The notes below the pieces were generated by a model. That model searched no databases and was not told the DNA's origin. It saw nothing but the letters and a program-made list of their open reading frames with translations. Of a stretch of 64,000 nt of DNA, positions 1-57,434 are shown piece by piece (position 1 is the stretch's first letter; the number at the start of each line of letters is the position of its first letter). The DNA comes from Candidatus Omnitrophota bacterium. Lineage in GTDB: Bacteria > Omnitrophota > Gorgyraeia > Gygaellales > Profunditerraquicolaceae. Location of the stretch: assembly GCA_041650295.1 (NCBI GenBank), contig JBAZLM010000003.1, positions 2,933 through 66,932 of the forward strand, in the 5' to 3' direction. Position numbers and translations under genes: made by a program.

Positions 1-958
1 CTGAAGTTGCAAAAACCTGCCAAGATTTATGTGCTTTACTTAATTTTTTACCTAAATCCTGCGCTTGTTTGCGATTATTACAAAGTGCAAATACCGCCGC
101 CCCACTTCCAGACATCATAATTTTTTCTAAGCCTATGTCAGAAAATGCTTTTTTAACCTGATTAATTACAGGATAAAGACTGGTAGTAGCAATTTCTAAG
201 TCATTGATCAGGTATTTGCGCTCAAACCTACTGCCTTTTTCAAGTAACTCAGAAGTTAGCATTTTAACATTACACTTCTTTCTTGTCAACCCCGCACCTT
301 GTTTTATTTCCAACTTTTTCCCATCTTGGATTTGCACAAGGTGCGGGGTCAATCTAGAAAAATGCCTGTCTGCCAGCAGACAGGCATCAAATTTTTCATA
401 AACCAAAGGTGTAGAAACCTTAAGATTAGGATAAATCAGCACAAACCAAAGCTTAAGCTTCCGCAAAGAAGGTAGGGGCGCAATCTTATCTCCGCGTTGG
501 CTACCTATAGCAAATTTAGTATTATAAATAAAGAACGCCACATCGCTACCTAGCTTTGCCCCTAAAGTAGCCAACCTTTTGAGCGATAAATTTAATTTCC
601 AGTATTTATTTAATCCCCAAAGAACAGCCGCGGCATTGCTAGAGCCTCCACCTAAACCTGCTCCCACCGGAATATTCTTTTTAAGCTCTATATCTAAACC
701 TAAATTTATTTTCTTTTCTTCTTTCAATAACTCTACTGCCCGCCAACAAAGATTAGTAGCGTCAATAGGCACAAATTTATGATTACATTTAATTTTAATT
801 AAATTATCCGCGCGATTTCTTAAAGTAATCGCATCGGCTAAATCAATTCGGCAAAATAAAGTACTTAAATTATGAAATTTATCTTGGCGTTTATTTAAAA
901 TTTGCAGATAAAGATTTACTTTGGCGAAGGATTTAACTGATAACAAGGATGGCTTCAT
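1..958 (-). CDS. ispE: 4-diphosphocytidyl-2-C-methyl-D-erythritol kinase (IspE), 3' end beyond window; carries an in-frame 63-bp palindromic insertion
   Basis: Manual translation of the minus strand from ATG at 958: MKPSLLSVKSFAKVNLYLQI...PVGAGLGGGSSNAAAVL...MSGSGAAVFAL. These are GHMP-kinase/IspE motifs. The frame stays open to position 1. The ORF is not in the track because it runs off the window edge. Confidence 0.8.
   Translation of the reverse strand, partial: MKPSLLSVKSFAKVNLYLQILNKRQDKFHNLSTLFCRIDLADAITLRNRADNLIKIKCNHKFVPIDATNLCWRAVELLKEEKKINLGLDIELKKNIPVGAGLGGGSSNAAAVLWGLNKYWKLNLSLKRLATLGAKLGSDVAFFIYNTKFAIGSQRGDKIAPLPSLRKLKLWFVLIYPNLKVSTPLVYEKFDACLLADRHFSRLTPHLVQIQDGKKLEIKQGAGLTRKKCNVKMLTSELLEKGSRFERKYLINDLEIATTSLYPVINQVKKAFSDIGLEKIMMSGSGAAVFALCNNRKQAQDLGKKLSKAHKSWQVFATS
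286..352 (-). repeat. Palindromic element (family 1 core) inserted in-frame within ispE: TTGACCCCGCACCTTGT-N31-ACAAGGTGCGGGGTTGAC
   Basis: A perfect 14-bp inverted repeat at 289-302 and 336-349 has the same CCCCGCACCTT core as the intergenic elements. Its length is 63 bp (21 codons) with no stop in the ispE frame. Confidence 0.6.
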
Positions 959-3868: not shown

Positions 3869-4753
3869 CTAATAAATAACTTTATTCAGCGGATACTCAA
3901 TAATCCCGCAAGCACCAGCTTCTTTTAACTCCGGGATTAATATGCGCACTACTTTCTCATCAATAATTGTCTCAATCGCTACCCAACCGTCATCACTTAA
4001 ACCAGAAATTGTCGGTTTCTTTAAGGCGGGCAACTTGGCAATAACTTTAGCTAAATCTTCTTTTTTGACATTCATCTTTAAGCCAACTTTATCTTCAGCG
4101 GTAATTGCTCCTTCTAAAAGTAAAGCAATCTGCTCCATCTTGGTTTTCTTCCAATTATCTTGATAAGCACTTTTATTGGCTATAAATTGCGTGGTGGATT
4201 CACAAAGTGTAGCAATTTCAGTTAATTTATTAGCCCGCAGAGAGCTGCCAGTTTCCGTAAGCTCGACGATAGCATCGACTAAACCACCGCTTACTTTAAC
4301 TTCTGTAGCACCCCAACTAAATTCTACTTCCACCTTAACTTTATTTTTCTCAAAATAATCTTTGGTAACATTAACTAACTCTGTAGCAATGCGCTTTCCT
4401 TCTAAATCTTTTACTGTTTTTATACCAGAGTCCTGGGGAACCGCTAAAACCCATCTAACCTTACTCATACTTTGTTTAGCGTAAGTTAAGTTACTGACTC
4501 TAACTACATCAGATTTATTCTCTAAGATCCAATCATTACCGGTGATTCCGCAGTCCAATGCCCCATCTTGCACGTAACGCGACATCTCTTGAGCACGCAA
4601 CAAGGTACATTGAATTTCAACATCATCTATCGACGGGAAATAAGAACGCGAACTAGATAAATTCACATTAAATCCGGCTTTTTTAAGCATCTTAAAGGTC
4701 GCCTCTTGCAGGCTACCCTTAGGCAATCCTAATTTTAAAATCTTATCTTTCAC
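3869..4753 (-). CDS. hisG: ATP phosphoribosyltransferase, long form (HisG). The GTG start lies inside a repeat element
   Basis: 294 aa with KLGLPKGSL near the N-terminus and a C-terminal regulatory domain. The start is GTG at 4753-4751 (no in-frame ATG before the conserved motif). Confidence 0.85.
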
Positions 4754-4828
4754 CCCGCACCTTCTCCTTATTTATTCTAAACCCTACCCCTTCTTCAATT
4801 CTAAATACCAAGAAGGTGCGGGGTTCAT
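4751..4828 (-). repeat. Family-1 palindromic start-codon element (copy 1): ATGAACCCCGCACCTTCT...GGAGAAGGTGCGGGGTG
   Basis: Inverted 13-nt arms CCCCGCACCTTCT / AGAAGGTGCGGGG. The terminal GTG is the hisG start. The 5' ATG opens uORF MNPAPSWYLELKKG*. An SD-like GAGGAAAG sits 6 nt upstream of that ATG. Confidence 0.6.
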
Positions 4829-8282: not shown

Positions 8283-8352
8283 AGCTTTATTCTATGCCAA
8301 AAAAATACCCTCTGCAAGTATTTACTCACAAAAGGTTAACTAAAATTTAATT

Positions 8353-8391
8353 GCTGGGGCCCGATCTGAACGGACGACCTCAAAGTTATAA
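8353..8391 (-). repeat. Degenerate duplicate of the tRNA-Met 3' half (att-like remnant)
   Basis: CTGGGGCCCGATCTGAACGGACGACCTCAAAGTTATAAG versus the tRNA 3' half at 8850-8889 (36/39 identical). Same orientation, about 460 bp apart. Confidence 0.5.
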
Positions 8392-8540
8392 GACTTAAAA
8401 CCTATTTTCCAGCGACTTTTAGTGTTACTCTTTTAGTCGCCTCCTTTCTGTTTAGATGTTTATATTACACTGCTAAAGAAAATCTTGATTAAGTAAAAAA
8501 CTAGTCAATTAAGTCTAGCCCTTTGCGATAATTAATGATA

Positions 8541-8726: not shown

Positions 8727-8845
8727 ATTATGCCTCCTTGTTTAAAACTATCATATCGTAAATCCCAAAATTGTAAACAATTTAAACTACTAAAAAACTA
8801 CAAAAAAAACCCTGCAGCTTATTAAGCTCCAGGGTTTTTAATAAT

Positions 8846-8922
8846 GGTTGCGGGGGCCCGATTTGAACGGACGACCTCAAGGTTATGAGCCTTGCGAGCT
8901 ACCAGGCTGCTCCACCCCGCGA
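8846..8922 (-). tRNA. tRNA-Met (CAT), initiator-like (C1xA72 mismatch), CCA encoded
   Basis: The reverse complement CGCGGGGTGGAGCAGCCTGGTAGCTCGCAAGGCTCATAACCTTGAGGTCGTCCGTTCAAATCGGGCCCCCGCAACCA is close to E. coli tRNA-fMet. Confidence 0.85.
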
Positions 8923-15259: not shown

Positions 15260-15849
15260 GATTTTCTAATTTTTAAGAAATTGAAAAAACCTAATAATAA
15301 ACCGATTACTAAAAGTGCCCCGGAAGGCATACCAAAAACAAATGCCGGTTCAAATCCCGGAATTAAAGTATGGCTAAAAATCTGCCCAGCACCTAAAAAT
15401 TCCCTAATTGCTGAAATAAGTACCAGAGCCAAAGTAAACCCCACCCCCATTCCTAAACCATCTAAAAAAGATTTGAGCAAATTGTTCTTACAAGCAAATG
15501 CCTCGGCACGACCTAAAACTATACAATTAACTACAATTAAAGGAACATATATGCCTAAAGCCCGATCCAGTACCGGACTATAAGCTTTTAGAATTAATTC
15601 AATTATCGTAACAAAAGTAGCAATGATGACAATAAAGCAAGGAATACGTATCTTATTAGGAATAAAATTCTTTACTAAAGAAATAATTACACTTGAACCC
15701 AAAAGTACAAAAGTCGCAGCTATTCCCATTCCGATCGCATTAACTACCGATACAGAAACTGCTAATGTTGGACACAATCCCAAAGCCAAAACAAATGTGG
15801 GATTTTCTTTAATTATGCCTTTAGTAAATTCCTTAATTAAATTCTTCAC
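15256..15849 (-). CDS. rnfE: Rnf complex subunit E. The GTG start lies inside a repeat element
   Basis: The N-terminus aligns with E. coli RsxE (LGLCPTLAV; NCIVLGRAEAFA). Confidence 0.85.
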   Translation of the reverse strand: MKNLIKEFTKGIIKENPTFVLALGLCPTLAVSVSVVNAIGMGIAATFVLLGSSVIISLVKNFIPNKIRIPCFIVIIATFVTIIELILKAYSPVLDRALGIYVPLIVVNCIVLGRAEAFACKNNLLKSFLDGLGMGVGFTLALVLISAIREFLGAGQIFSHTLIPGFEPAFVFGMPSGALLVIGLLLGFFNFLKIRKS

Positions 15850-15931
15850 CCCGCACCTTCTCCTATATTATTAATTAATTTTAACCCTCACTCCTTCCAA
15901 CAATTGAGTTCAAAGAAAGTGCGGGGTTCAT
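15847..15931 (-). repeat. Family-1 palindromic start-codon element (copy 2) at the rnfD|rnfE junction
   Basis: ATGAACCCCGCACTTTCTTTG...GGAGAAGGTGCGGGGTG. The uORF ATG overlaps the rnfD TGA (ATGA). The terminal GTG is the rnfE start. Confidence 0.6.
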
Positions 15932-25609: not shown

Positions 25610-27619
25610 CTATTCATTAATTAATTGTTTAATCTCATCTAAATGCTTACGCGCTTCAGCTTCACCGCGGCGGGCAAACTCATCGGCTTTATGTAGCTCT
25701 AACCAAAACAAACCGGTAGTATCCGGATGTAAAACAATGTCTGCCAACTCCCCTTCACGCCGAGCAACTTCCGATTGCAAAACCTCAACGCTACTAAAAA
25801 TAATATCAACAATATTTAAATTCAAAATACCCTTTAACCAACTAAAAAAATTAAAACCTTTTTGCAACTGATTAGCTTGACCAACCGCAGGAATAGTTTC
25901 TTTAAGCCTAGCCAGCTGTTTTAAAATATCTTCCCGCGATGGAGTAACATTAACGGCAATAATCTTTCTAATCCCCATCTGCATCAAAGGCTCAGTCGGT
26001 AGAGGATAAGTTACCCCTCCATCAAAAAGGATCTCTTCTTTAAATTTAAAAGGTGCAAAGACCCCCGGCATCGAACAGCTGGCCATTATAGCATCAACCA
26101 GCAAACCTTTATCAAAAATTTTTGGTTCTTTTTTGTGCACATTGCTAGCAATTATCTTTAAAGGCAACTTTACATCATAAAAAGTTTTATCCCCGAACTG
26201 CTTTTTTAAAAAACGGTACAACTTATTACCTTTAATAAAACCAAAACGCGGGAAAGTTATATCAATTAATCCCCAAATGTGCTTAGGCTCTTTAAATTCT
26301 CTAATAATATCTAGAATTTCACCGCTACTTTTACCAATTGCCCAAAGACTAGCAATTAAAGAACCAATACTAGAGCCAACGATTGTATCGATGGGTATCT
26401 TTTCTTCTTCAATAACTTTTAACACCCCCACATGACAAAAACCATAGCCCACCCCTACCCCTAAAACTAAGCCAACCTGACAATCACCGAGGTTTCTAGC
26501 GATTCTTCTCACCGCTTTAGAGTATTCACTATCCGGTTGATCGATAATTTGCCGATCAGGAGCTTGAGATTCTATTTTAGGAATAGTGGCAAAGATATCC
26601 TGGCCTAAAATATCCAATTGATCGCTATGATTAATTTTGGCCAATTTATATTCATTAACAATAGTAATAATTTTTTTCGCATCAAAATTAAAATCATTCT
26701 CTAAACGACTAATTAAATTGTTGGTACGCTTTAAATCTAAAGGATCCGGACTAGTCAGGATATGGATAAGATCGGACTGGTTGAGGATGGTAATCATAGC
26801 CTGATCCATCGCCACAGGCAAATCTAAAATAATATAATGATAATCATTCACCAGAATGCTAACTATCTCAATTAATCTTTTAAGGCAAGCAGGATTATTC
26901 TCCTGATAATAAAAACAAAATAAGTCTATACCAAAGCTACTTTTTAAAAGATAGTCTTTTGGTAAAGTATAGATATCCGAAGCAGTGGATAAATCAAAGA
27001 TTGGCGGTTGCTCTATCCCCAATTTAGCCGGTAAAGAGTGTGGTCTACCGCAAGGCAAGATATCTAAAATAATCACTGATTTATGCGTTTCGCGATTTAA
27101 ACTTAAGCCCAAATTTAAAGCATAAATAGTTTTCCCCGCTTGAGCATAAGAACTAAAAATAGAGATAACTGTGCTTTCAAAGATTTTTTTCTGATGCACA
27201 TCTTTATGTTTAAGGCGTCGACTTAACGTCCGACTTAAATCAATTGCCAGATGAGGAATTTTTTGTAAAACATCATCAAAATCTTCTTTTTTAATTACCA
27301 AAATAACACAATCGTTAATCGCTTCACTAGTCACCGAGTGCGCTTCACTAGTTAACAATGAAATAATCCCAAAATATTTACCGCGATGTAAATACTCTAA
27401 AACTGATTGCTTGCCATTTTGATCTTTGGTATAAATCTGCACTCGGCCAGAGATAATGCAATAAAAAGCGCAAGGGTTAGCCCCTTGCGCATAAATAATT
27501 TGCCCCTTGCGATATTCAACGATCTGACTTTTAGCGTTAATTATTGCCAGCTGGCCTTTACTTAGACCAGCAAAAAAAGGTAATTCTTTTATAATAAATT
27601 CTTTATCTTTGGGATTCAC
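25610..27619 (-). CDS. Cyclic-nucleotide-binding (CAP effector) domain / ParA-MinD-like NTPase-like / patatin-like phospholipase fusion protein. The GTG start lies inside a repeat element
   Basis: N-terminal cNMP-binding beta-barrel (GQIIYAQGANPCAFYCIISGRVQIY...YFGIISLL). The central region resembles deviant ParA/MinD (SYAQAGKT). The C-terminus is patatin with GxGxxG and GSSIGS (GxSxG). Confidence 0.65.
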   Translation of the reverse strand: MNPKDKEFIIKELPFFAGLSKGQLAIINAKSQIVEYRKGQIIYAQGANPCAFYCIISGRVQIYTKDQNGKQSVLEYLHRGKYFGIISLLTSEAHSVTSEAINDCVILVIKKEDFDDVLQKIPHLAIDLSRTLSRRLKHKDVHQKKIFESTVISIFSSYAQAGKTIYALNLGLSLNRETHKSVIILDILPCGRPHSLPAKLGIEQPPIFDLSTASDIYTLPKDYLLKSSFGIDLFCFYYQENNPACLKRLIEIVSILVNDYHYIILDLPVAMDQAMITILNQSDLIHILTSPDPLDLKRTNNLISRLENDFNFDAKKIITIVNEYKLAKINHSDQLDILGQDIFATIPKIESQAPDRQIIDQPDSEYSKAVRRIARNLGDCQVGLVLGVGVGYGFCHVGVLKVIEEEKIPIDTIVGSSIGSLIASLWAIGKSSGEILDIIREFKEPKHIWGLIDITFPRFGFIKGNKLYRFLKKQFGDKTFYDVKLPLKIIASNVHKKEPKIFDKGLLVDAIMASCSMPGVFAPFKFKEEILFDGGVTYPLPTEPLMQMGIRKIIAVNVTPSREDILKQLARLKETIPAVGQANQLQKGFNFFSWLKGILNLNIVDIIFSSVEVLQSEVARREGELADIVLHPDTTGLFWLELHKADEFARRGEAEARKHLDEIKQLINE

Positions 27620-27694
27620 TCCGCACCTTCTTCTTTATTCGCTACCTAACCCGCACCTCTTAATATATAAATACAAAGAAGATGCGGGGTTCAT
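27617..27694 (-). repeat. Family-1 palindromic start-codon element (copy 3)
   Basis: ATGAACCCCGCATCTTCTTTG...AGAAGAAGGTGCGGAGTG. The uORF ATG directly follows the GH1 TAA (TAAATG). The terminal GTG is the start of the downstream gene. Confidence 0.55.
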
Positions 27695-32945: not shown

Positions 32946-33572
32946 TTATTGATGCTCCTCTAAAAACTTTTGTAAATCTTTAGCTAAAGGTGCTTCTATA
33001 GTCACTAGTTTTGCCGTTTGTGGATGCTCAAACTCTAAATGTTGAGCATGTAAACAAACTCTTTTGGCCCGCAAAGCAAAATCTTTACGAAAAACAAATT
33101 TATCTTCCCCAACCAGAGGATGACCAATTCCTTTAAAATGAATACGAATCTGATTAGTTCTACCAGTAACCGGAGAGATCTCTACTACACAATAATTACT
33201 TTTTTGTTCTATAATTTTATATTTTGTAATCGCACTCTTACCTTCAATCGCTACGCTAATCGTTCCTTGAGCATGCGCTAATTTTCCGTGCACAAAAGCA
33301 AAATACTTTTTACTAACCTGGCGATTTCTAAAAGCATCCGCCATTTTAGCTTCTATGGCTTTAGATTTAGCATAAATAACTAACCCGGAAGTATCGCGAT
33401 CCAACCGATGACAAGGATAAAGCTGATAAACTAACCCTCTGTCTTTAGCGTCTTGATTTAAAATACTGGTTAACGTGCGCGATTCATTTTTTGGCGTCGG
33501 TACGCATAACAAGCCCGCCGGCTTGTCTACAATCAAAAGATAATCATCTTCAAAAACAATCGGAATATTCAC
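32946..33572 (-). CDS. RluA-family pseudouridine synthase. The GTG start lies inside a repeat element
   Basis: HRLDRDTSGLVIYAK catalytic motif. 208 aa. Confidence 0.75.
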   Translation of the reverse strand: MNIPIVFEDDYLLIVDKPAGLLCVPTPKNESRTLTSILNQDAKDRGLVYQLYPCHRLDRDTSGLVIYAKSKAIEAKMADAFRNRQVSKKYFAFVHGKLAHAQGTISVAIEGKSAITKYKIIEQKSNYCVVEISPVTGRTNQIRIHFKGIGHPLVGEDKFVFRKDFALRAKRVCLHAQHLEFEHPQTAKLVTIEAPLAKDLQKFLEEHQ

Positions 33573-33643
33573 CCAGCACCTTCTCTTTATTCATCTAACC
33601 CTACATCTTCTATATTTAAATATCAAGAAAGTGCGGGGTTCAT
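33570..33643 (-). repeat. Family-1 palindromic start-codon element (copy 4)
   Basis: ATGAACCCCGCACTTTCTTGA...GAGAAGGTGCTGGGTG. The uORF ATG overlaps the nadA TAA (TAATG). Confidence 0.55.
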
Positions 33644-38263: not shown

Positions 38264-39220
38264 TTACCGGCAGTGCATTAGATCCCCGCTACTCACTTTT
38301 ATCATCACTCCGGAATCCTTGCGAATCAGCAATGCTCCGTCAATATCGATATCTTGCGCCATCCCCTCAATATGTTTATCCTGGCAGTATACTTTAACCC
38401 GCTTACCCAAAGTAAGCCCAAAATGACGCCACTTCTCTACAATGGCCATATTCCCTTTTTTCTCTAATAAAAAATAATTCTCCTCTAATCTAAACAAAAG
38501 CTCCTGTAATAGCGTTACCCGGTTAACCGGTTGATCCAGCTGCTCTCTTAATGAAGTGGCTTGAGCAATTAAAGACTTCTTATCGTTATTCACATTTAGA
38601 CCGATTCCGATGACAATAAAATTAACTTTATCTACTTCAGCGTTCATCTCCGTTAAAATTCCGGCTAATTTCTTATTATGAATTAATACATCATTGGGCC
38701 ATTTAATCTGACTATCGATATCGCAAACCTCCTTTACCGCTTCACAGATACTCACCGCACTCAAAAGAGTTAAAATTGGTGAAACCGCTGGGGCAATCTT
38801 TGGTCTTAGAATTAATGAAAGGTAAATTCCTTTATATTTTGGCGAAGACCACTCTCTACCTAATCTGCCTCTGCCTTTAGTCTGTGATTCCGCTAATACC
38901 AAAGTTCCGCTAGCTGCTCCCTGCATCCCCAACTCCATCGCTAAATTCATCGTAGAATTTAAATAATCAAAATATTTAATTTTTTTACCGATAAACTTGG
39001 TGCGTAGATTACGTAAAACTTCAAAAGGAAAGAGCCGATCCGGACAAGACTGTAAACGATAACCCAAATGCGGCACTGCTTCAATTTCATAACCAGAATC
39101 TTTTAATTCCTGAATATGTTTCCACAACCCCTGACGACTAATCCCTAAATTCTTACTGATCTGATCGCCAGAAAGATAATCGTGTTCTTTACTTAGATAA
39201 TCGAGTATTTTTTCTTTCAC
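38264..39220 (-). CDS. birA: Bifunctional biotin-[acetyl-CoA-carboxylase] ligase / biotin operon repressor. The GTG start lies inside a repeat element
   Basis: N-terminal HTH (LSGDQISKNLGISRQGLWKHI) plus the BPL catalytic domain (GRGRLGREW). Confidence 0.8.
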   Translation of the reverse strand: MKEKILDYLSKEHDYLSGDQISKNLGISRQGLWKHIQELKDSGYEIEAVPHLGYRLQSCPDRLFPFEVLRNLRTKFIGKKIKYFDYLNSTMNLAMELGMQGAASGTLVLAESQTKGRGRLGREWSSPKYKGIYLSLILRPKIAPAVSPILTLLSAVSICEAVKEVCDIDSQIKWPNDVLIHNKKLAGILTEMNAEVDKVNFIVIGIGLNVNNDKKSLIAQATSLREQLDQPVNRVTLLQELLFRLEENYFLLEKKGNMAIVEKWRHFGLTLGKRVKVYCQDKHIEGMAQDIDIDGALLIRKDSGVMIKVSSGDLMHCR

Positions 39221-39297
39221 CCCGCACCTTCTAATTATTCATTAATCTTAAACCACCGCGCCTTCTAATATTATTCAAAAGAAGGTGCGGGGTTCAT
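39218..39297 (-). repeat. Family-1 palindromic start-codon element (copy 5)
   Basis: ATGAACCCCGCACCTTCTTTTGAATAA...TTAGAAGGTGCGGGGTG. The uORF ATG overlaps the upstream TGA (ATGA). Confidence 0.6.
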
Positions 39298-40358
39298 CTT
39301 TTTTTAAGATACTCTTCAAATTTACCCCAAAACGGATCCACTCTCGGATGTTCTAGCTGATATCTTTTATTGCCATCAATCACCTGCATCCCTTTAGACT
39401 TGGCCGTAACCTCACCCACAATACTAGCCGCAATCCCTGACTTTTCTAAAGCAACCACTATCTCTTTAGCTTTTCTAGGATTAGCCGTGGCTAATAAAGT
39501 TCCTTCGCTAATAGATTTAAAAGGATCCATATCAAAACACGCACAAACCAGCCGCACTTCTTCTGGAAGAATTATTTTATTTTTATCAATACACATCCCC
39601 ACCTGACTATGTGCAGCAATTTCAAATAGACCGCCCCAAATACCACACTCCGTGGCATCATGCATAGCAGTTAGTCCACCCACAGAAGCTGCCACCAACG
39701 CATCTTTTATCGTCGACATCTGATAAAAAATATTCTGCGCGCGCTTCACAAAAGCCTTGCCGTATTTTTTTTCTAGAAATTTTGGGAAATAGGCTGACAT
39801 TAAACCGGTGGTTTCAATTGCTGGGCCTTTAGAAACAATGATCGCATCACCCACTTTAGCACAAGGAATAATTAAATCTTTTTTCTTACCAAACCCAAAG
39901 ACCGTCCCGCCACCGACCATAGGATAATTACACCCAGCATAACGTGCAGTATGACCGGTAACCACGCTAATTCCCAGTTTATTACACTCCTTGTGCACCG
40001 CATCCCACATGCGCACTAATTCATCCTGTGCCATTTCAGGAGGCAGATTTAAATCAATCGCCAGATATTTCGGAGCAATTCCACTGACCGCCACATCACT
40101 AGCAATAATATGCACCGCAAACCAAGCCGCTTTTTCAATTCCTAATTCTTTAGCAATAAAAAACGGATCCGTGGATAAGACCATTACCTGATCACCTAAA
40201 TCCACCACCCCAAAATCTACACCATTCTGAGGCTTAACAATTACAGACTTATCCGGCTTGCCTAATTTATGATAAATATGCTGATTAAAAAAATCCGGAT
40301 GGATTTTTCCGAGCTTTGGTAAGGATTTATTTTTCTTCATAGAGTGGGGACATCGCAC
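39294..40358 (-). CDS. PurM-superfamily (AIR-synthase-related) protein, HypE-like but lacking the C-terminal Cys
   Basis: LSTDPFF...SDVAVSGIAPKYL and HDATECGIWGGLFEIA align with HypE NDVAVSGAIPRYL / RDATRGG. No PRIC C-terminus. Confidence 0.5.
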   Translation of the reverse strand: MRCPHSMKKNKSLPKLGKIHPDFFNQHIYHKLGKPDKSVIVKPQNGVDFGVVDLGDQVMVLSTDPFFIAKELGIEKAAWFAVHIIASDVAVSGIAPKYLAIDLNLPPEMAQDELVRMWDAVHKECNKLGISVVTGHTARYAGCNYPMVGGGTVFGFGKKKDLIIPCAKVGDAIIVSKGPAIETTGLMSAYFPKFLEKKYGKAFVKRAQNIFYQMSTIKDALVAASVGGLTAMHDATECGIWGGLFEIAAHSQVGMCIDKNKIILPEEVRLVCACFDMDPFKSISEGTLLATANPRKAKEIVVALEKSGIAASIVGEVTAKSKGMQVIDGNKRYQLEHPRVDPFWGKFEEYLKKR

Positions 40359-41490
40359 GTAGTTTTTTAACCACGGGAGGTAATTTTTCTAACAGATAAT
40401 CAATATCACTTTCGGTGGTCCAGCGACCCAGAGTTATTCTTAAAGATCCATGAGCAGTTCCATGATCTAAACCAATCGCTAATAAAACATGTGAAGGCTC
40501 TAAAGAGCTCGAGGTACAGGCTGAACCGGTGGAGCAAGCGATCCCCAGCATGTCTAGGCTTAAAAGCATCGACTCCCCTTCAATATATTTAATCGAAAAA
40601 TTGACATTATTGGGTAAACGTTTAGTCGCGTGGCCATTAAGAATAACTTCGGGAATCTTTAAAGGAATCTCTTTAATTAATCTATCCCTTAAAGCACTTT
40701 GCAATTTAATTTCATCTTTCATATTCTTTTGACAAAGCTCAACTGCTTTAGCCAGACCAACTATCCCCGGAATATTGTGTGTAGAACCTCGTCTACCTCT
40801 CTCTTGGTCACCACCGCGCATAAAAGTCTCTAAACGTGTACCTTTGCGAATATACAAAGCACCCACACCTTTGGGACCATAAAATTTATGCGCCGCTAAT
40901 GATAATAGATCAACATTGAGCTCATTTACATTTATCGGGATATGACCCACTGTCTGCACAGCATCCGTATGAAAATAAATTCCTTTTTCTTTAGCAATTT
41001 TTCCCAAAATTTCAATTGGCTGCAATGTTCCAATTTCATTATTAGCGTGCATAATACTAATTAGAATAGTTTTGTCGGTAATCGCCTTTTTTAAATCTTC
41101 CGGCAAAACTAAACCATCTTTATCCACTCCTAAATAAGTAACTTGAAAACCTTTTTTTTCTAAAAACTTTAACGGCTCGCTAATCGCATGGTGCTCAATC
41201 GCTGAGGTAATAATATGGTTGCCTTTTTTTTCTAAAGCATAAGCCACACCCATAATCGCATAATTATCCGACTCAGTTCCCCCAGAAGTAAAAACGATCT
41301 CTTCGGGTTTAGCGCCGATAAAATCTGCCAAAGTTTGTCGACTATCCTCTAGAGCTTTCTTAGCTTCTTGTCCATAGGCATGCAAGCTAGAAGCATTACC
41401 AAATTTTTCAAAAAAATACGGCTCCATCGCTTTTAAAACTAACGGATCAGTGGGTGTAGTTGCCGCATAATCTAAATATACTTTCTTCAC
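40327..41490 (-). CDS. iscS: Cysteine desulfurase (IscS/NifS). The GTG start lies inside a repeat element
   Basis: SGGTESDN, the PLP Lys region SLAAHKFYGPKG, and active-site SSGSACTS. Confidence 0.85.
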   Translation of the reverse strand: MKKVYLDYAATTPTDPLVLKAMEPYFFEKFGNASSLHAYGQEAKKALEDSRQTLADFIGAKPEEIVFTSGGTESDNYAIMGVAYALEKKGNHIITSAIEHHAISEPLKFLEKKGFQVTYLGVDKDGLVLPEDLKKAITDKTILISIMHANNEIGTLQPIEILGKIAKEKGIYFHTDAVQTVGHIPINVNELNVDLLSLAAHKFYGPKGVGALYIRKGTRLETFMRGGDQERGRRGSTHNIPGIVGLAKAVELCQKNMKDEIKLQSALRDRLIKEIPLKIPEVILNGHATKRLPNNVNFSIKYIEGESMLLSLDMLGIACSTGSACTSSSLEPSHVLLAIGLDHGTAHGSLRITLGRWTTESDIDYLLEKLPPVVKKLRAMSPLYEEK

Positions 41491-41566
41491 CCCGCACCTT
41501 CTCTCTATTAATTAACTCTTACCCTACGCCTTCTAATGTCTAATTTAACGAAGGTGCGGGGTTCAT
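41488..41566 (-). repeat. Family-1 palindromic start-codon element (copy 6)
   Basis: ATGAACCCCGCACCTTCGTTAAATTAG...GAGAAGGTGCGGGGTG. Its ATG overlaps the TGA of a 7-codon mini-ORF that begins at the GTG of the adjacent family-2 element. Confidence 0.6.
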
Positions 41567-41582
41567 CTCTTAATTACCTCAT

Positions 41583-41654
41583 TCACCACGTTAGAAACAG
41601 GTTGTCGCAGACAACCGTAAATTATCTTTTTGCCTTGTTTCTAACGAGGTTCAT
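41583..41654 (-). repeat. Family-2 palindromic element (copy a), 72 nt, fused in-frame onto the 3' end of the PP-loop ATPase gene
   Basis: ATGAACCTCGTTAGAAACAAGG...GGTTGTCTGCGACAACCTGTTTCTAACGTGGTGAAT. It shares its termini with family 1. The upstream ORF reads through ...SMNLVRNKAKR* inside it. Confidence 0.6.
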
Positions 41655-42437
41655 ACTACCAGTGCGATATCCTTCTAAATCTAATGTTATATAATTAAAC
41701 CCAAACTTTTTTAAACGTTCGACAATCTGTTGGCGCTTATTAAACAATTTATTTAAATCTTGTTTACCGACTTCAATACGACAAAATTCATGGTAATAAC
41801 GCAAACGCACTTGTTTGAAACCTAAACTATTGATATACTCTTCGGCCTGGTTGATTCTCCTCAATAATTTCGCGGTTATTTTAGTTCCGTAAGGGATACG
41901 CGAAGCCAAACAAGCTAAGCTTGGCTTATTCCAACTAGAAAGCCCTAACTTCTTACTTAATTTACAAATATCTATTTTCGTAAAACCCGCTTCAACTAAC
42001 GGCGACTTAATTTTCAACTCTGCTTTCGCCAAACTCCCTGGACGATAATCACCTTTATCCGTTATATTACTGGCTTCAAAAACAAAATTTAATTTATTTT
42101 GTTTAGCAATCTTAATTAACTTTAAAAAGAGCTCTTTTTTACAAAAATAACAACGCTTAACCGGATTAGCCGTAAACTTTTTATTACTTAATTCTTGCGT
42201 TCTAATTACTTTAAGCTCTACCCCAATATCTTTAGCTAATTTCTTAGCTTTAACTAACTCACTTTTAGGATAAGTCTGGGAAACCGCGGTGACCGCTAAA
42301 AATTTATCCGGTGCAAGGGTTAACGCACAAACTTTAAGCAGGAGTGCACTATCCTGGCCGCCGGAAAACGCCACTATACATGATTTATATCTACCAATGA
42401 TACGCTTAAGTAAATCTAACTTCTTTTGCAGAATCAT
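41622..42437 (-). CDS. PP-loop superfamily ATPase (LarE/COG1606-like sulfur transferase). The C-terminal tail is encoded by a repeat element
   Basis: CIVAFSGGQDSALLL PP-loop. 271 aa. Confidence 0.6.
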   Translation of the reverse strand: MILQKKLDLLKRIIGRYKSCIVAFSGGQDSALLLKVCALTLAPDKFLAVTAVSQTYPKSELVKAKKLAKDIGVELKVIRTQELSNKKFTANPVKRCYFCKKELFLKLIKIAKQNKLNFVFEASNITDKGDYRPGSLAKAELKIKSPLVEAGFTKIDICKLSKKLGLSSWNKPSLACLASRIPYGTKITAKLLRRINQAEEYINSLGFKQVRLRYYHEFCRIEVGKQDLNKLFNKRQQIVERLKKFGFNYITLDLEGYRTGSMNLVRNKAKR

Positions 42438-55090: not shown

Positions 55091-55950
55091 TAATTTTTTC
55101 CACTAAAGAAGACCGACGACTAATTACTGAAATACCCGACACAAGCTCTTTTTCGCCTGGTGATCGAAACCTTTGTTTTCTGATTCATGGACTTACCGGC
55201 ACCGCCAAAGAGATGGGTTCAATTGCTAAAAATTTAAATAAAAACGGTTTTTCTGTCGCTTGCCCCTTAATGGCTAACCACAATAAATCTATCTCTTGCC
55301 TTAAGCGCACAAGTTGGCAAGAACTATATAATTCTGTACGCCAAGAATTTATTAAATATGCCCATGATTATGAGAATATTTTTGTGGCCGGCTTATCTTT
55401 TGGTGCTTTAATTGGAATTATGCTGGCTTACGAATTCCCAAAAAAAGTTAAAGCCTTAAATTGCTTCTCTCCCACTCTCTTCTTTGACGGTTGGGCCAAT
55501 CCTAAATTAAGATTTCTTTTACCACTAGTTTATAAAACACCGCTAAAATATTGTTTTTATCTTAAAGAAGGGCATCCTTATGGGATTAAAAATGAGAGGC
55601 TGCGTTCAAGAATTGAAAACTTCTATACAAAATCAGAATTATTTGATTACAGCAAAGTACATCTCTACGGATACCCCGTAATTCCGGTATCTAGCATGGA
55701 ACAGAATCATTTACTGGCAAAACAAGTAATGAAAATACTTCCCCTCGTAACTACTCCGATACAGCTGCTGGGTGCCAAAGACGACGACGTCACTAGCCCC
55801 AAAAACTCTTATTATATCTATAACCATATTGGTTCAAAAGATAAAGAGGTAATATTATTCGAAAATTCCTACCACATTATTATTGCAGATCAAGAAAGGG
55901 ATAAAGTTGCGGAAAAAACTTTATCTTTTTTTCAAAAATACAAAACTTAA
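55087..55950 (+). CDS. Alpha/beta-hydrolase fold esterase/lipase
   Basis: GLSFG nucleophile elbow. 287 aa. Confidence 0.55.
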   Translation: MIIFSTKEDRRLITEIPDTSSFSPGDRNLCFLIHGLTGTAKEMGSIAKNLNKNGFSVACPLMANHNKSISCLKRTSWQELYNSVRQEFIKYAHDYENIFVAGLSFGALIGIMLAYEFPKKVKALNCFSPTLFFDGWANPKLRFLLPLVYKTPLKYCFYLKEGHPYGIKNERLRSRIENFYTKSELFDYSKVHLYGYPVIPVSSMEQNHLLAKQVMKILPLVTTPIQLLGAKDDDVTSPKNSYYIYNHIGSKDKEVILFENSYHIIIADQERDKVAEKTLSFFQKYKT

Positions 55951-57434
55951 GATTTTTTTAAGGCTCTAATTAACGCTTCTTCGAAAAGTTCAACCCCTAA
56001 ATCAATCTCTTCTTCCGTAATATAAAAAGAAGGTGCAATGGTAAAGACGTTTTTATAATAACCACCAACGTCTAAAATTAAACCTCGGCGTTTTCCTTTT
56101 ACATCTAAAGAACCGCTTAAACCTAAATTAACAATCTTATCGGTGAGCTCTTTATTAGGCGTATAGCCGTCTTTTTCGCAGATCTCCATACGCAAAGCCA
56201 AACCAATTCCATCAACATCACCGATCTGAGGATATTTTTTCTGTAATTTCTTAAGTTGATCAATAAAATAACGACCTTTTTTAGGGATCGATAATGCAAA
56301 ATCAGACTCTTCAATTAATTTCATCACCGCCAACCCCGCAGTTGTCCCCAAGGTATTAGAGGAAAATGTCGCATGAGTAGAACCCGGAGGAAAAACATCC
56401 GGATTAATTAATTTCTCTTTAGCCCAGATTCCGCTAATCGGATTTAACCCATTAGTTAGTGCTTTACCAAAAACAATGATATCCGGGGTAATATTAAAAT
56501 GCTCAATCGCCCAGAACTTTCCCGTGCGGAAAAATCCCATTTGGATCTCATCGTCCACAAAAAGAATTCCGTAGCGATCTAAAATTTCTTTTAGTTTAGA
56601 ATAATACTCTTGCGGTGGAACAATATAACCACCAGTACCTTGAATCGCTTCAGCATAAAAAGCGGCAAACTCACATTTATTATTCTTCTTATTCACCACT
56701 GAATAATATTCAGTCTCAAAAAGTCTTTCAAACTGTTTTAAACAATATAAATCACAAAAATCTCTTTTCTTATCATATGGACATCTAAAACAATACGGAT
56801 ATGGAATAAACATTGCCCGGTCTCCAAAATGACCGAAACGTTCCCTATATCTAAAACTCGAGGTAATCGCCGAAGCCGCTAATGTCCTCCCGTGATAACC
56901 ACCCATAAAAGCAAAAACCAAACTTCTACCAGTATTATTACGCACTAACTTTAATGAATCCTCTAAAGCACTGGAACCTCCGACATTAAAATGAATTCTC
57001 CCTTTCTCTTCAAAAGTCCGCTGATTTTTCTGAGCTAATTTTGTTGCTAACTCAATTTTTTCAGTATGCAAATACTGGCAAGCTAGTTGTGGTAAGGTAT
57101 CGATTTGCTTTTTTAATGCTTCATTGAGTTGAGGATTACCATAACCAAAGTTCACCGCTGAATACCACATCTGCAAATCTAAAAATTCTGTCCCTTGATC
57201 ATCATAAAGATAGCTACCATGAGAGCGCTTAAATATATTTAACTTTTCCGCATAATGCACGGTATCTCCCCAAGAGCAATATTTTGCTTCCAGATCAAGC
57301 AACTCATTATGCGTAATATTCTTTTTAATTTTAGCACTTCTCTTAATCATCGCTTTTGAATTCACCCCGTTAGAAACAGGTTGCCAGAGGCAACCGTGGG
57401 GCTTCTCTTTTATCTTATTTCTAACGGGGTTCAT
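55947..57434 (-). CDS. Class-III PLP-dependent aminotransferase. The N-terminal 26 codons are encoded by a family-2 repeat element (true start may be the internal GTG or ATG)
   Basis: DDEIQMGFFRTGKFWA and FGKALTNG (PLP-Lys) motifs. The track ORF begins at the element's ATG: MNPVRNKIKEKPHGCLWQPVSNGVNS. Confidence 0.7.
   Translation of the reverse strand: MNPVRNKIKEKPHGCLWQPVSNGVNSKAMIKRSAKIKKNITHNELLDLEAKYCSWGDTVHYAEKLNIFKRSHGSYLYDDQGTEFLDLQMWYSAVNFGYGNPQLNEALKKQIDTLPQLACQYLHTEKIELATKLAQKNQRTFEEKGRIHFNVGGSSALEDSLKLVRNNTGRSLVFAFMGGYHGRTLAASAITSSFRYRERFGHFGDRAMFIPYPYCFRCPYDKKRDFCDLYCLKQFERLFETEYYSVVNKKNNKCEFAAFYAEAIQGTGGYIVPPQEYYSKLKEILDRYGILFVDDEIQMGFFRTGKFWAIEHFNITPDIIVFGKALTNGLNPISGIWAKEKLINPDVFPPGSTHATFSSNTLGTTAGLAVMKLIEESDFALSIPKKGRYFIDQLKKLQKKYPQIGDVDGIGLALRMEICEKDGYTPNKELTDKIVNLGLSGSLDVKGKRRGLILDVGGYYKNVFTIAPSFYITEEEIDLGVELFEEALIRALKKS
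57363..57434 (-). repeat. Family-2 palindromic element (copy b), 72 nt, in-frame with the aminotransferase
   Basis: ATGAACCCCGTTAGAAATAAG...GGTTGCCTCTGGCAACCTGTTTCTAACGGGGTGAAT. The ATG overlaps the upstream HAD-gene TGA (ATGA). Confidence 0.6.

Follow-up and report, generated by a model that had tools for sequence, protein, structure and literature searches.

Two miniature inverted-repeat elements at a larE–iscS junction in Omnitrophota and their ~0.3-kb relatives encoding a GIY-YIG nuclease

The window analysed here, a 64,000-nt stretch of an Omnitrophota contig, contains two sulfur-metabolism genes, larE-like and iscS, which border a pair of tandem palindromic elements, and the stop and start codons running through these elements raise the question of what the junction represents. 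An earlier note on this DNA read it as a translational relay, in which elements of two families are chained by stop/start overlaps that are hard to explain other than by selection for, or insertion preference at, coupled junctions. All of its sequence statements on the junction hold on the minus strand, where all genes there are encoded, and the kinship it saw between the two families is confirmed by the CC..GG ends and TGAA flanks common to both. The explanation favoured here is that of a double insertion of mini-elements derived from parents that encode a GIY-YIG nuclease, in which this nuclease would drive mobility and translational coupling may arise at the start codons; taken as a whole, it is considered probable.

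The junction region (41486–41654, minus strand) comprises a pair of miniature inverted-repeat elements, each surrounded by a 4 bp duplication of TGAA. The element nearer larE, belonging to family 2, spans 64 bp from repeat to repeat (41586–41649, minus strand), with inverted repeats CCTCGTTAGAAACAAGG and CCTGTTTCTAACGTGG and an inner palindrome, GGTTGTC..GACAACC. Its upstream TGAA (41650–41653, minus strand) lies in the Met-Asn codons of larE (ATGAA, 41654–41650), with the downstream copy found at 41582–41585 (minus strand). The second element, of family 1, measures 72 bp from repeat to repeat (41490–41561, minus strand) and is bounded by CCCCGCACCTTC and GAAGGTGCGGGG, with an imperfect third arm, GAAGGCGTAGGGT, inside; its upstream TGAA (41562–41565, minus strand) falls within the original ATGAA of iscS and its downstream TGAA (41486–41489, minus strand) forms part of the present iscS GTG. 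The arms of the two elements are 15–22 nt in length with 82–93 % complementarity, and the corresponding RNA hairpins have predicted energies of −29.4 and −26.5 kcal/mol (z-scores −7.1 and −4.2). A search of Rfam 15 with positions 41300–41800, at E-values up to 1, returned no match to a known RNA family.

The state of this junction before insertion can be read from relatives L001–L005, in which larE and iscS overlap by ATGA in the DNA AGTATGAATGAGGTAATTAAGAGATGAAAAAAATAT and neither element site is occupied, each showing one TGA(A); the empty site of family 2, AGTATGAATGAGG, contains a single TGAA. On the strength of this alignment, the ancestral junction is shown to have been ...AGT ATGAA TGAGGTAATTAAGAG ATGAA GAAAGT..., with the larE TGA overlapping the iscS ATG, and the present region is shown to consist of two non-autonomous miniature transposable elements, inserted at neighbouring TGAA sites of the larE–iscS junction.

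Family 2 is likewise shown, by the same comparison, to have entered larE at an internal ATGAA (Met-Asn), seven codons ahead of its original stop, evidently replacing the tail NEVIKR with LVRNKAKR and stranding the old tail as a 7-codon frame. The larE-like PP-loop ATPase ORF as it reads today (41622–42437, minus strand; 271 aa, tail ..GSMNLVRNKAKR*) ends ...GYRTGS-ATG AAC CTC GTT AGA AAC AAG GCA AAA AGA TAA, corresponding to ...SMNLVRNKAKR*, with its stop inside the element. That this copy rewrites the larE C-terminus, as previously proposed, is borne out by the homologues, since NLVRNKAKR occurs in only 1 of 120, and nearly all others carry (L/M)NEVIxx. The usual end amongst orthologues is ..GS(L/M)NEVIxx, a tail of the form (L/M)N(E/A)(V/I/A) is present in 116 of 119 homologues, and their length is mostly 267–268 aa. 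The closest of them (P0002, 84 % identity) finishes GSMNEVIKR, matching the frame now stranded in the window (GTG AAT GAG GTA ATT AAG AGA TGA = VNEVIKR*; 41586–41563, minus strand), which past its element-derived first G is, by DNA comparison, the L001 sequence ATGAATGAGGTAATTAAGAGATGA. Given that the relatives' sites are empty, and that larE there ends ...GSMNEVIKR with its TGA on the iscS ATG, the supposed mini-ORF is the orphaned tail of larE, and the AGATGA overlap is ancestral. The frame itself is present, as the earlier note had it, but it is a cut-off gene end and not a module of a relay; its GTG is, on this alignment, an accident of the terminal G of the element.

That the apparent frame continuity stems from an error of sequencing or assembly, a doubt the earlier note had itself entertained, finds backing solely in the fact that metagenome assemblies are generally fragile at repeats, and is of negligible probability. 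A separate ENA contig (sample ERZ27247363) is 100 % identical across 1816 bp that include both elements, the seven family-1 and two family-2 copies of the window are alike in architecture, and more than 100 further copies occur in other genomes.

Family 1, for its part, is shown by the aligned relatives to have struck the start codon of iscS, the old ribosome-binding site and ATG of which now evidently open a short uORF, MNPAPSLN* (41566–41540, minus strand). This is an N-terminal remnant of the GIY-YIG ORF of the parent (MNPAPS..), and the former iscS ribosome-binding site, GAGG (41580–41577), sits within the stranded larE tail. The ATGA in question (41563–41566, minus strand), formerly the larE stop on the iscS start (a 4-nt gene overlap in L001–L005), today joins the stop of the stranded tail to the start of the uORF (AGATGAACC; ATG at 41566–41564). 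The cysteine desulfurase gene (iscS/nifS-like, 40327–41490, minus strand; PF00266, 299 bits) now starts on a GTG (41490–41488) made of the last G of the family-1 element and the TG of the downstream TGAA copy, exactly as had been claimed, with a Shine–Dalgarno-like GAAGGTG 6 nt upstream; the element supplies both, and the IscS N-terminus, MKKVYLDYAATT, agrees with that of relatives starting on ATG. The asserted chain of overlaps is accordingly real with respect to its TGA/ATG junction, which is ancestral, but broken at its last link, as the uORF ends after 8 codons, in the loop and 49 nt short of the GTG. The hairpin encloses GAAGG and the GU of the GUG, and in the mRNA the 13-bp repeat stem would hide the new Shine–Dalgarno-like sequence together with the start codon, such that ribosomes arriving from the upstream gene or from the remnant ORF might open the stem and thereby couple translation. 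Because the remnant ORF stops in the loop at iscS, coupling at this copy can only plausibly be inferred.

Elsewhere in the window, matches to the family-1 arm number 14 (seven elements), against 0.09 expected. Besides that at iscS, copies lie on the starts of birA (39220–39292, at an ATGA overlap with an upstream AIR-synthase-like gene), an RluA-like pseudouridine synthase gene (33572–33638), a cNMP-binding/patatin gene (27619–27689), an Rnf-Nqr subunit gene (15849–15926) and hisG (4753–4823), all on the minus strand. A degenerate copy with TTGA/TTGA flanks (290–348, minus strand) is intergenic, following a terminator-like hairpin and off gene starts. The window copies are mutually 62–80 % identical over aligned stretches, and hence recent activity shows no sign here. 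Three copies of the window, counting both elements of the larE–iscS junction, have empty sites in relatives, the third being that at 15849–15926, the site of which is empty in L089; this case is reciprocal, as L089 has a copy where the window has none. The birA locus of L002 (position 2394) was considered as a further empty site and rejected, as it holds a decayed 3′ half of an element, with the GTG changed to ATG. The idea of a regulon was rejected, as the genes 3′ of the window copies are unrelated (hisG, rnf, patatin, rluA, birA and iscS).

At large, copies of family 1 were found in at least 120 stretches, the majority from Omnitrophota MAGs. Both 4-nt flanks agree in 99 of 130 copies, and variant flanks co-vary (TGAG/TGAG in seven instances, then TGGA, TAAA, TTAA, TTGA, TTTA and TGAT), albeit imperfectly, as some copies combine a TGAG flank with a TGAA flank; tandem copies have one TGAA in common. 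Internal orientation, called by the purine content of the inner region (with the inner third arm as criterion, 96 of 146 copies stayed unassigned), is coupled to the orientation of the TGAA flank by 84:0. As regards location, 114 of 137 copies are exactly on a gene start codon, judged by a frame of at least 60 codons from the 3′ GTG, with the other two frames yielding 3 and 5; such copies swap in their own GTG, preceded by the Shine–Dalgarno-like GAAGGTG, and 46 of the 137 are on an ATGA overlap. Empty sites show the same tendency, with 70 at gene starts and 10 in other intergenic positions against a TGAA background of 193 and 684 (odds ratio 25, p = 4e-32), an enrichment derived from crude ORF calls and from loci picked for exact repeats. 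No extended target motif was found beyond (A)TGAA, the profile around empty sites being that of ordinary ATGAA gene starts. The preference for start codons and ATGA overlaps suspected in the earlier note therefore exists, whilst its notion of a relay selected at this locus does not hold, the overlap being ancestral.

Both families are shown, from their repeats and flanks, to be what are evidently internally deleted copies of longer elements, of ~0.28–0.31 kb, with the same ends; the mini-element consensus retains ~25 nt from each end of the full element. The parents (about 280–313 bp) possess a single ORF, an 85–106-aa stand-alone GIY-YIG nuclease (UPF0213/SLX1-like), which scores 61 bits (range 53–66) with the Pfam GIY-YIG model PF01541 (cut-off 22.6) and 19 bits with the group I intron endonuclease model TIGR01453 (cut-off 56). 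The nearest solved structures are the UPF0213 proteins 1ZG2 and 1YWL, then SLX1, and the Y..YIG..R..E motifs are conserved in 104 nuclease sequences. In family-1 parents the DNA reads ATGAA, CCCCGCACCTTCT..ORF..GAAGGTGCGGGG and TGA, as exemplified by L089 (6430–6724), where the ORF is enclosed by family-1 repeats. In these, and in family-2 parents of the ATGAA type, the nuclease ORF opens on the host ATG (MNPAPS.. and MNPVRN.., respectively), crosses the 5′ repeat and ends either on the TGA of the 3′ duplication (GTGA), overlapping the new start of the host gene, or on a TAA a few bases earlier inside the 3′ repeat. Across 104 full-length homologue clusters, an MNPAPS-like start is seen in 36, an (E/K)GAG end in 49, and either or both in 59. 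Parents are positioned in line between the ribosome-binding site of the host and the host gene; those of family 1 occupy gcvPA/gcvPB, cdd/nrdR, RND adaptor/acrB, ABC ATPase/permease and rnfB/purN junctions, always with a 4-nt overlap with the downstream gene and in most cases with the upstream gene as well.

For family 2, parents were sought with a DNA pattern free of coding information, requiring repeats 255–285 nt apart, which gave at least 120 matches; among the matches listed, 94 of 119 intervals (79 %; 280–305 bp) contain a GIY-YIG ORF. Copies such as L175, L177 and L180 have the MNPVRN start on ATGAA, at host starts such as that of dxr. Flanks of full-length family-2 copies are identical in only 30 of 89, with many unequal. 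Nuclease identity follows repeat class: it is 0.68–0.70 for members of one class, 0.57 for different family-2 subclasses and 0.45 across the two families. One operon (L128) harbours both a mini and a full copy, and a full-length copy (L126) derives from the same metagenome sample as the window, not necessarily from the same genome; no GIY-YIG gene was found by tblastn in the 64-kb window itself.

As the parent ORF opens on the host ATG and reaches the GTGA, stop–start chaining would be inherited from the parent. It is, by this reasoning, built into the GIY-YIG element, retained in 33 of 72 family-1 mini copies and decayed at larE–iscS. Of the 72, 47 have the reading frame whose end is the GTGA, and the 33 are those of the 47 that are open throughout, compared to 16 % after shuffling. 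Selection appears to keep a relay-like design in about half of the mini copies elsewhere. The parent would take over the ribosome-binding site and ATG of the host and, via the GTGA overlap, hand back a Shine–Dalgarno-like sequence and GTG; copies may persist at start codons because such positions allow expression of the parent without loss of the host gene.

It could be argued that the palindromes are host-selected cis-regulatory modules which couple larE, the mini-ORFs and iscS, as a hairpin that sequesters a Shine–Dalgarno-like sequence and start codon, a remnant-ORF frame and openness far above chance across the family, and a strong enrichment at start codons would all be expected of a relay. 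This is, however, judged improbable, given that relatives express this operon with both element sites empty and the genes simply overlapping by ATGA, that the 7-codon frame is a severed larE tail, and that presence or absence differs between relatives in both directions. Added to this are the functionally unrelated downstream genes, the early stop of the remnant ORF in all six intact family-1 window copies and the want of a matching family in Rfam.

With regard to what moves these elements, the proposal here is that the nuclease itself would mobilise them, its substrates being TGAA targets and the hairpin or cruciform into which the repeats fold. In its full form, this holds that the ~0.3-kb units are undescribed minimal autonomous mobile elements, mobilised by a bare nuclease of SLX1/UPF0213 type, which take over start codons with a GTGA hand-back, and that the hairpins of the window are their decayed, trans-mobilised offspring; the chances of this being correct are put at about even. 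GIY-YIG enzymes are, to our knowledge, hydrolytic nucleases with no known strand-transfer activity, and a nuclease by itself does not account for integration or for the 4-bp duplication.

It is here that a more conventional reading gains some purchase, namely that ordinary mini elements are moved in trans by an unseen DDE-type transposase, with the GIY-YIG gene as cargo or loop invader. Inverted repeats together with co-varying duplications of 4 bp are the hallmark of DDE transposition, and transposition by GIY-YIG nucleases is not known. Against this, no larger repeat-bounded gene or transposase was seen in the window and fetched loci, some ~1 Mb of element-rich Omnitrophota sequence, where repeat pairs further apart proved to be neighbouring mini copies only. 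In addition, the nuclease ORF covers the whole element from flank ATG to flank TGA, each of the two repeat families has its own nuclease subfamily, and the nuclease occupies 79 % of the 280–305-bp family-2 intervals among the matches listed; a fixed orientation (84:0) to a non-palindromic target would also be unusual for symmetric-ended DDE elements. A DDE transposase is on these grounds regarded as unlikely.

A comparable question attaches to IS200/IS605 elements and their miniature derivatives (PATEs), which are very small, hairpin-dependent and fixed in orientation beside a specific tetra- or pentanucleotide; they generate no target duplication, have separate subterminal hairpins and employ a Y1 HUH transposase. 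Family 1 shares the fixed orientation, and differs in its paired ends and duplicated, co-varying flanks. Were the elements of this type, or REP/REPIN-like, TGAA would be a recognition tetranucleotide and not a duplication, which would suit the hairpin-forming palindromes, their orientation relative to the flank and the single TGAA common to tandem copies. Variant flanks that co-vary on both sides are unexpected, however, if one TGAA belongs to the element, the element ends pair together in place of forming separate subterminal hairpins, a Y1 gene was never seen adjoining a copy, and copies are situated on coding starts or inside larE as opposed to extragenic positions, rendering this reading very improbable.

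Returning to the nuclease-encoding units, the free-standing GIY-YIG homing endonucleases of T4-like phages (seg, mobE), which spread by intronless homing, provide a parallel, their genes likewise being selfish passengers lodged between conserved genes. Homing enzymes carry an added DNA-binding domain and enter the same allelic site via flanking homology, without inverted repeats or target duplication, whereas the enzymes described here are bare 85–106-aa domains of the SLX1/UPF0213 branch, located at no fewer than 6 unrelated junctions with repeats and duplications. By sequence, the closest protein family is that of the stand-alone SLX1-like proteins (UPF0213; 1ZG2, 1YWL), a minimal GIY-YIG domain. 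A survey from 2006 regarded SLX1-like proteins as vertically inherited, with a probable role in repair, and traced selfish GIY-YIG enzymes to another, UvrC-like, branch (PMC1564403). Unlike the SLX1-like proteins of that survey, the members considered here are framed by inverted repeats and dispersed; parent units of this kind would challenge a purely housekeeping view of the branch.

The mini copies resemble bacterial MITEs in being short and non-coding, with terminal inverted repeats, target duplication, many dispersed copies and presence/absence polymorphism between relatives, and in having a longer coding element with the same ends. They depart from them in that this full-length relative is not a transposase-bearing insertion sequence but a ~0.3-kb unit with GIY-YIG only; no recognised IS-family transposase was found in the longer element, its sole ORF being the GIY-YIG domain (PF01541). 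Copies here, moreover, are precisely on start codons, in one orientation, with the start codon replaced. Amongst known MITEs (the Correia element of Neisseria, QMITE of Coxiella, ERIC and BOX), there are some that change the C-termini of proteins or share a transcript with genes (PMC10969869). REP2 repeats of Neisseria and inverted-repeat sequences on Borrelia plasmids are found immediately upstream of genes, to which they supply a ribosome-binding site and start codon (PMC3184786), and the 3′ end of family 1 serves iscS in just this way. The sequences are unrelated, and for those repeats PMC3184786 mentions neither terminal inverted repeats with target duplication, empty sites nor a nuclease gene.

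A literature search, with most subscription journals outside its reach, found no description of such elements. Should ~0.3-kb units prove to be nuclease-mobilised, they would be the smallest self-contained bacterial transposable elements known to us (IS200 is ~0.7 kb), and a selfish function would be provided for part of the long-unexplained stand-alone GIY-YIG family. A repeat-bounded unit of ~300 bp, the whole length of which is one nuclease ORF, would be an unusually economical parasitic design. The more than 100 natural insertions, each placing a strong hairpin, a short uORF and a GTG before an unrelated gene, form a ready series for the study of coupling and of start-site tolerance.

There are consequences for annotation as well, as many gene starts in Omnitrophota genomes would be element-borne GTG codons, many entries annotated as "GIY-YIG nuclease family proteins" and small ORFs with an MNPAPS or MNPVRN start would be parts of mobile elements, and some protein ends, such as that of LarE in the window, would be element-encoded. 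In this respect the elements recall the Rickettsia palindromic elements (RPEs), palindromic selfish DNA in coding genes that adds or replaces peptide in frame. RPEs, in contrast, are ~150 bp in length and found anywhere within gene bodies, and no autonomous partner is known for them, whereas insertion here is at TGAA, mostly at gene starts, and the larE copy truncates and does not extend in frame. Comparable to an RPE, along with the larE copy, is the second family-2 copy of the window, of 65 bp (57365–57429, minus strand), where a phosphatase-like gene meets a class-III aminotransferase gene at an ATGA junction; together with its duplication it amounts to 69 nt in frame, a possible N-terminal extension of 23 aa.

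On the minus strand, the junction between larE (41622-42437, with PP-loop ATPase signatures) and the cysteine desulfurase gene iscS (40327-41490, PF00266) reads ...GGTAGT ATGAA/CCTCGTTAGAAACAAGGCAAAAAGATAATTTACGGTTGTCTGCGACAACCTGTTTCTAACGTGG/TGAA TGAGGTAATTAAGAG ATGAA/CCCCGCACCTTCGTT...GAGAGAAGGTGCGGGG/TGAA GAAAGTATAT..., the first palindrome belonging to family 2 and the second to family 1. The chain of reading frames described in the earlier note is present in full: larE continues into the first palindrome and stops inside it (tail ...SMNLVRNKAKR-stop), the GTG at the 3′ foot of this palindrome opens VNEVIKR-stop, the TGA of that frame overlaps the ATG opening MNPAPSLN-stop, and iscS has the corresponding GTG of the second palindrome as its start codon. 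An assembly or sequencing artefact is an extremely unlikely source of this arrangement, as another ENA contig matches it at 100 % identity across 1816 bp spanning both elements. RNA folding yields −29.4 and −26.5 kcal/mol for the two palindromes (z-scores of −7.1 and −4.2 against shuffled sequence), and folding is likewise seen for either strand of the DNA. The window contains 14 matches to the family-1 arm, from 7 elements, where 0.09 would be expected.

The window LarE is recorded at NCBI as a protein from a Candidatus Omnitrophota MAG, and its C-terminus has indeed been rewritten by the family-2 copy, with the tail (L/M)N(E/A)(V/I/A) found in 116 of 119 other homologues, which are mostly 267-268 aa; the closest of these (84 % identity) ends in GSMNEVIKR. 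In the closest relative (L001) and in contigs of the next (L002-L005), larE and iscS overlap by 4 bases, the junction DNA being AGTATGAATGAGGTAATTAAGAGATGAAAAAAATATATTTAGATTATGCG. Removal in silico of each palindrome and one TGAA from the window restores this layout. Both palindromes have thus been inserted, with TGAA duplicated in each case; the 7-codon mini-ORF is what larE originally ended in, now cut off from the gene; and AGATGA is the overlap by which larE and iscS were joined ancestrally. In the severed tail, the first base, originally an A, has given way to the G that ends the element. The remnant ORF, MNPAPSLN, is at present served by the former ribosome-binding site of iscS, GAGG, located 10 nt 5′ of the ATG.

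For family 1, species-representative genomes were searched with a DNA pattern of two 12-nt arms 35-65 nt apart, which matches at least 120 stretches, the majority from Omnitrophota MAGs. Among the matches listed plus the window, the 4-nt flanks are identical in 99 of 130 copies (TGAA in most), and variant flanks co-vary (TGAG/TGAG seven times; also TGGA, TAAA, TTAA, TTGA, TTTA and TGAT), indicating true target duplications; the direction of the purine-rich interior relative to TGAA is 84:0. Within this same set, a frame of at least 60 codons opens at the 3′ GTG in 114/137 copies (3 and 5 for the other frames), and the TGA of the 5′ ATGA is the upstream gene's stop in 46/137. Computational excision there places 70 sites on called gene starts, 10 in other intergenic positions and 19 within ORFs, compared with 193, 684 and 7202 unoccupied TGAA sites, respectively (start versus other intergenic: odds ratio 25, p = 4 × 10−32). 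The family does favour start codons, as well as the stop-start junctions suggested in the earlier note. No motif beyond (A)TGAA separates occupied sites from ordinary ATGAA starts. The site of the window rnf copy is empty in the relative L089, whilst the next junction carries a copy in L089 and is empty in the window. Family 1 is therefore mobile and targets start codons. The six intact window copies occupy the starts of hisG, rnf subunit, patatin/cNMP, rluA-like, birA and iscS genes, which are functionally unrelated, and a regulon is accordingly disfavoured. That the elements are purely host-selected regulators is very unlikely, being contradicted by these unrelated downstream genes as well as by the empty sites in relatives.

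The origin of family 1 is apparent in L089 (6430-6724), where its arms lie 270 nt apart and enclose a small, frameshifted GIY-YIG ORF. A protein search using the repaired ORF as query returned 112 clusters, the named ones mostly from Omnitrophota, with 104 being full-length. An MNPAPS-like N-terminus, corresponding to translated ATGAA plus the 5′ arm, is found in 36 of these 104, a C-terminal (E/K)GAG, corresponding to the translated 3′ arm, in 49, and one or both in 59. The full-length unit has the layout ATGAA/CCCCGCACCTTCT..ATG TAY CAT GTN TAT..GAAGGTGCGGGG/TGA, has an ATG-to-TGA length of 303 or 321 nt, and lies between gcvPA and gcvPB, cdd and nrdR, an RND adaptor gene and acrB, an ABC ATPase gene and its permease gene, and rnfB and purN. 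It overlaps the downstream gene by 4 nt always, and the upstream gene likewise in most cases. As the mini-element consensus retains ~25 nt of subterminal sequence from either end, the family-1 mini copies are internal-deletion derivatives of this unit, and their uORF is what is left of the nuclease N-terminus; one operon (L128) holds both a mini and a full copy. The nuclease is a bare GIY-YIG domain (PF01541, 61 bits) with conserved catalytic Y, YIG, R and E positions, and its nearest structures are UPF0213 (1ZG2 and 1YWL), followed by SLX1 structure-specific endonucleases. Many of its relatives, including P0240, P0249 and P0262, are 240-300 aa with the domain at residues 1-85, and may be known methyltransferase fusions or read-through into a host gene.

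Family 2 shares this origin. Scanning metagenomes for family-2 arms 255-285 nt apart, with a pattern free of coding information, gave at least 120 matches, and 94 of 119 intervals among those listed contain a GIY-YIG ORF (HMM E < 1e-5). Copies with the window arm type (CCCCGTTAGAAAC..) have ATGAA/TGAA flanks and an MNPVRN start on the host ATG, and the long ones adjoin recognisable host N-termini (e.g. Dxr, sugar nucleotidyltransferase); the window peptides, MNLVRNKAKR-stop at larE and MNPVRNKIK.. at 57434, agree with this start. Nuclease identity follows arm class: 0.68-0.70 for members of one class, 0.57 when the two family-2 subclasses are compared and 0.45 across families. Among the matches listed, family 2 is the more heterogeneous, since only 30/89 long copies have identical flanks, and other sub-lineages use different 4-mers. 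One of these (long elements in L152, L162 and L178) duplicates TATG, copying the host ATG to both sides, which looks like independent convergence on start codons via a different target word. A library-wide protein search retrieved 11,125 cluster representatives with E ≤ 0.001, with termini of similar style (..GEAG, ..GGAG, ..LSLTG, MNPAPP.., MSPALP..) amongst them. The second window copy (57365-57429, minus) lengthens the sequence by 69 nt, made up of 65 bp of element and 4 bp of duplication (57361-57434), without bringing in a stop, so that a class-III aminotransferase ORF (55947-57434) is readable with a possible 23-aa N-terminal extension, MNPVRNKIKEKPHGCLWQPVSNG.

The elements thus combine inverted repeats, a 4-bp duplication, a TGAA-fixed orientation and start-codon placement; the parent ORF takes the host ATG as its start and, for family 1, stops on a TGA overlapping the regenerated GTG. 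The family-1 3′ arm contains GAAGGTG, 6 nt 5′ of the GTG and one mismatch from canonical GGAGGTG, and CACCTTC in the 5′ arm mimics the anti-Shine-Dalgarno sequence, suggesting that the 13-bp stem would hide the new start until opened by a ribosome, whether one that initiated on the host ATG or one that is terminating at an overlapping stop of the upstream gene. A frame ending on GTGA occurs in 47/72 mini copies (chi-square p = 3 × 10−8), 33 of which are open throughout, against 16 % in shuffles; selection hence appears to favour such a coupled hand-over in mini copies. The relay proposed in the earlier note consequently stands in part. Stop-start chaining is a real family design, but at larE-iscS it is decayed, as the remnant ORF is open in none of the six intact window family-1 copies and the iscS stump stops 49 nt 5′ of the GTG; the overlap and mini-ORF taken for its links are the ancestral junction and the larE tail.

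The GIY-YIG nuclease is probably the mobilising enzyme, perhaps through structure-specific cuts at the base of the repeat hairpin or cruciform as well as at TGAA; if these cuts were staggered and left non-palindromic 4-nt ends, the duplication would be accounted for, and so would the fixed orientation. That a conventional transposase mobilises the elements in trans and the nuclease is cargo seems rather unlikely, given that no gene for one turned up in about 1 Mb of element-rich sequence. The fixed orientation would also agree with a REP/RAYT or IS200-type mechanism, with which the co-varying duplications disagree, rendering it extremely improbable. Formally, the window elements are MITEs, and the larE-iscS locus is a double MITE insertion, a kind of event already known. 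RPE, ERIC, BOX and QMITE elements rewrite protein C-termini (PMC10969869), resembling the family-2 change at larE, and Neisseria REP2 and Borrelia repeats supply a ribosome-binding site and start codon (PMC3184786), much as the family-1 3′ end does. It is the element class that appears new, and is of high interest. Its parent matches none of the IS families, and no description of repeat-bounded GIY-YIG mini-elements was found in the literature searched, coverage of which was incomplete. A 2006 GIY-YIG survey placed selfish members in the UvrC-like branch, and took the stand-alone SLX1-like proteins to be repair factors with vertical inheritance (PMC1564403).

A degenerate family-1 copy with TTGA/TTGA flanks (286-353), in the same strand orientation as the others, lies just past a terminator-like hairpin (about 354-390) and off any gene start, a rare intergenic case. 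In a relative (L002 2340-2400), birA is preceded by the family-1 3′ half alone (..GAAGGTGTGAGATGAAAG), with the element GTG mutated to ATG and the arm decayed, which suggests that the 3′ arm, once the 5′ arm is lost, lives on as ribosome-binding site of the gene. At L018 1080-1185 and L113 2290-2392, a solitary family-1 3′ arm and TGA(A/G) directly follow another kind of palindromic repeat (GTAGACCTACGCGGTCTACA plus its inverse), which may represent an additional repeat family or a composite element. Tandem or nested copies have a single TGAA in common (L013 7439-7609, L018 5904, L065 4208-4339, P0303 and P0338), with two MNPAPS motifs in some called proteins, consistent with renewed insertion at the regenerated target. 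In nearly every 2-kb bin of the window, GC skew is strongly negative, and 61/67 ORFs (crude calling) are on the minus strand, so that element orientation there is inseparable from replication direction. Finally, a 46-nt direct repeat (8351-8396 and 8848-8893; 89 % identical, 497 bp apart) duplicates the 3′ part of tRNA-Met (8845-8921); the copy away from this gene comprises no complete tRNA, and could be an old integration scar.
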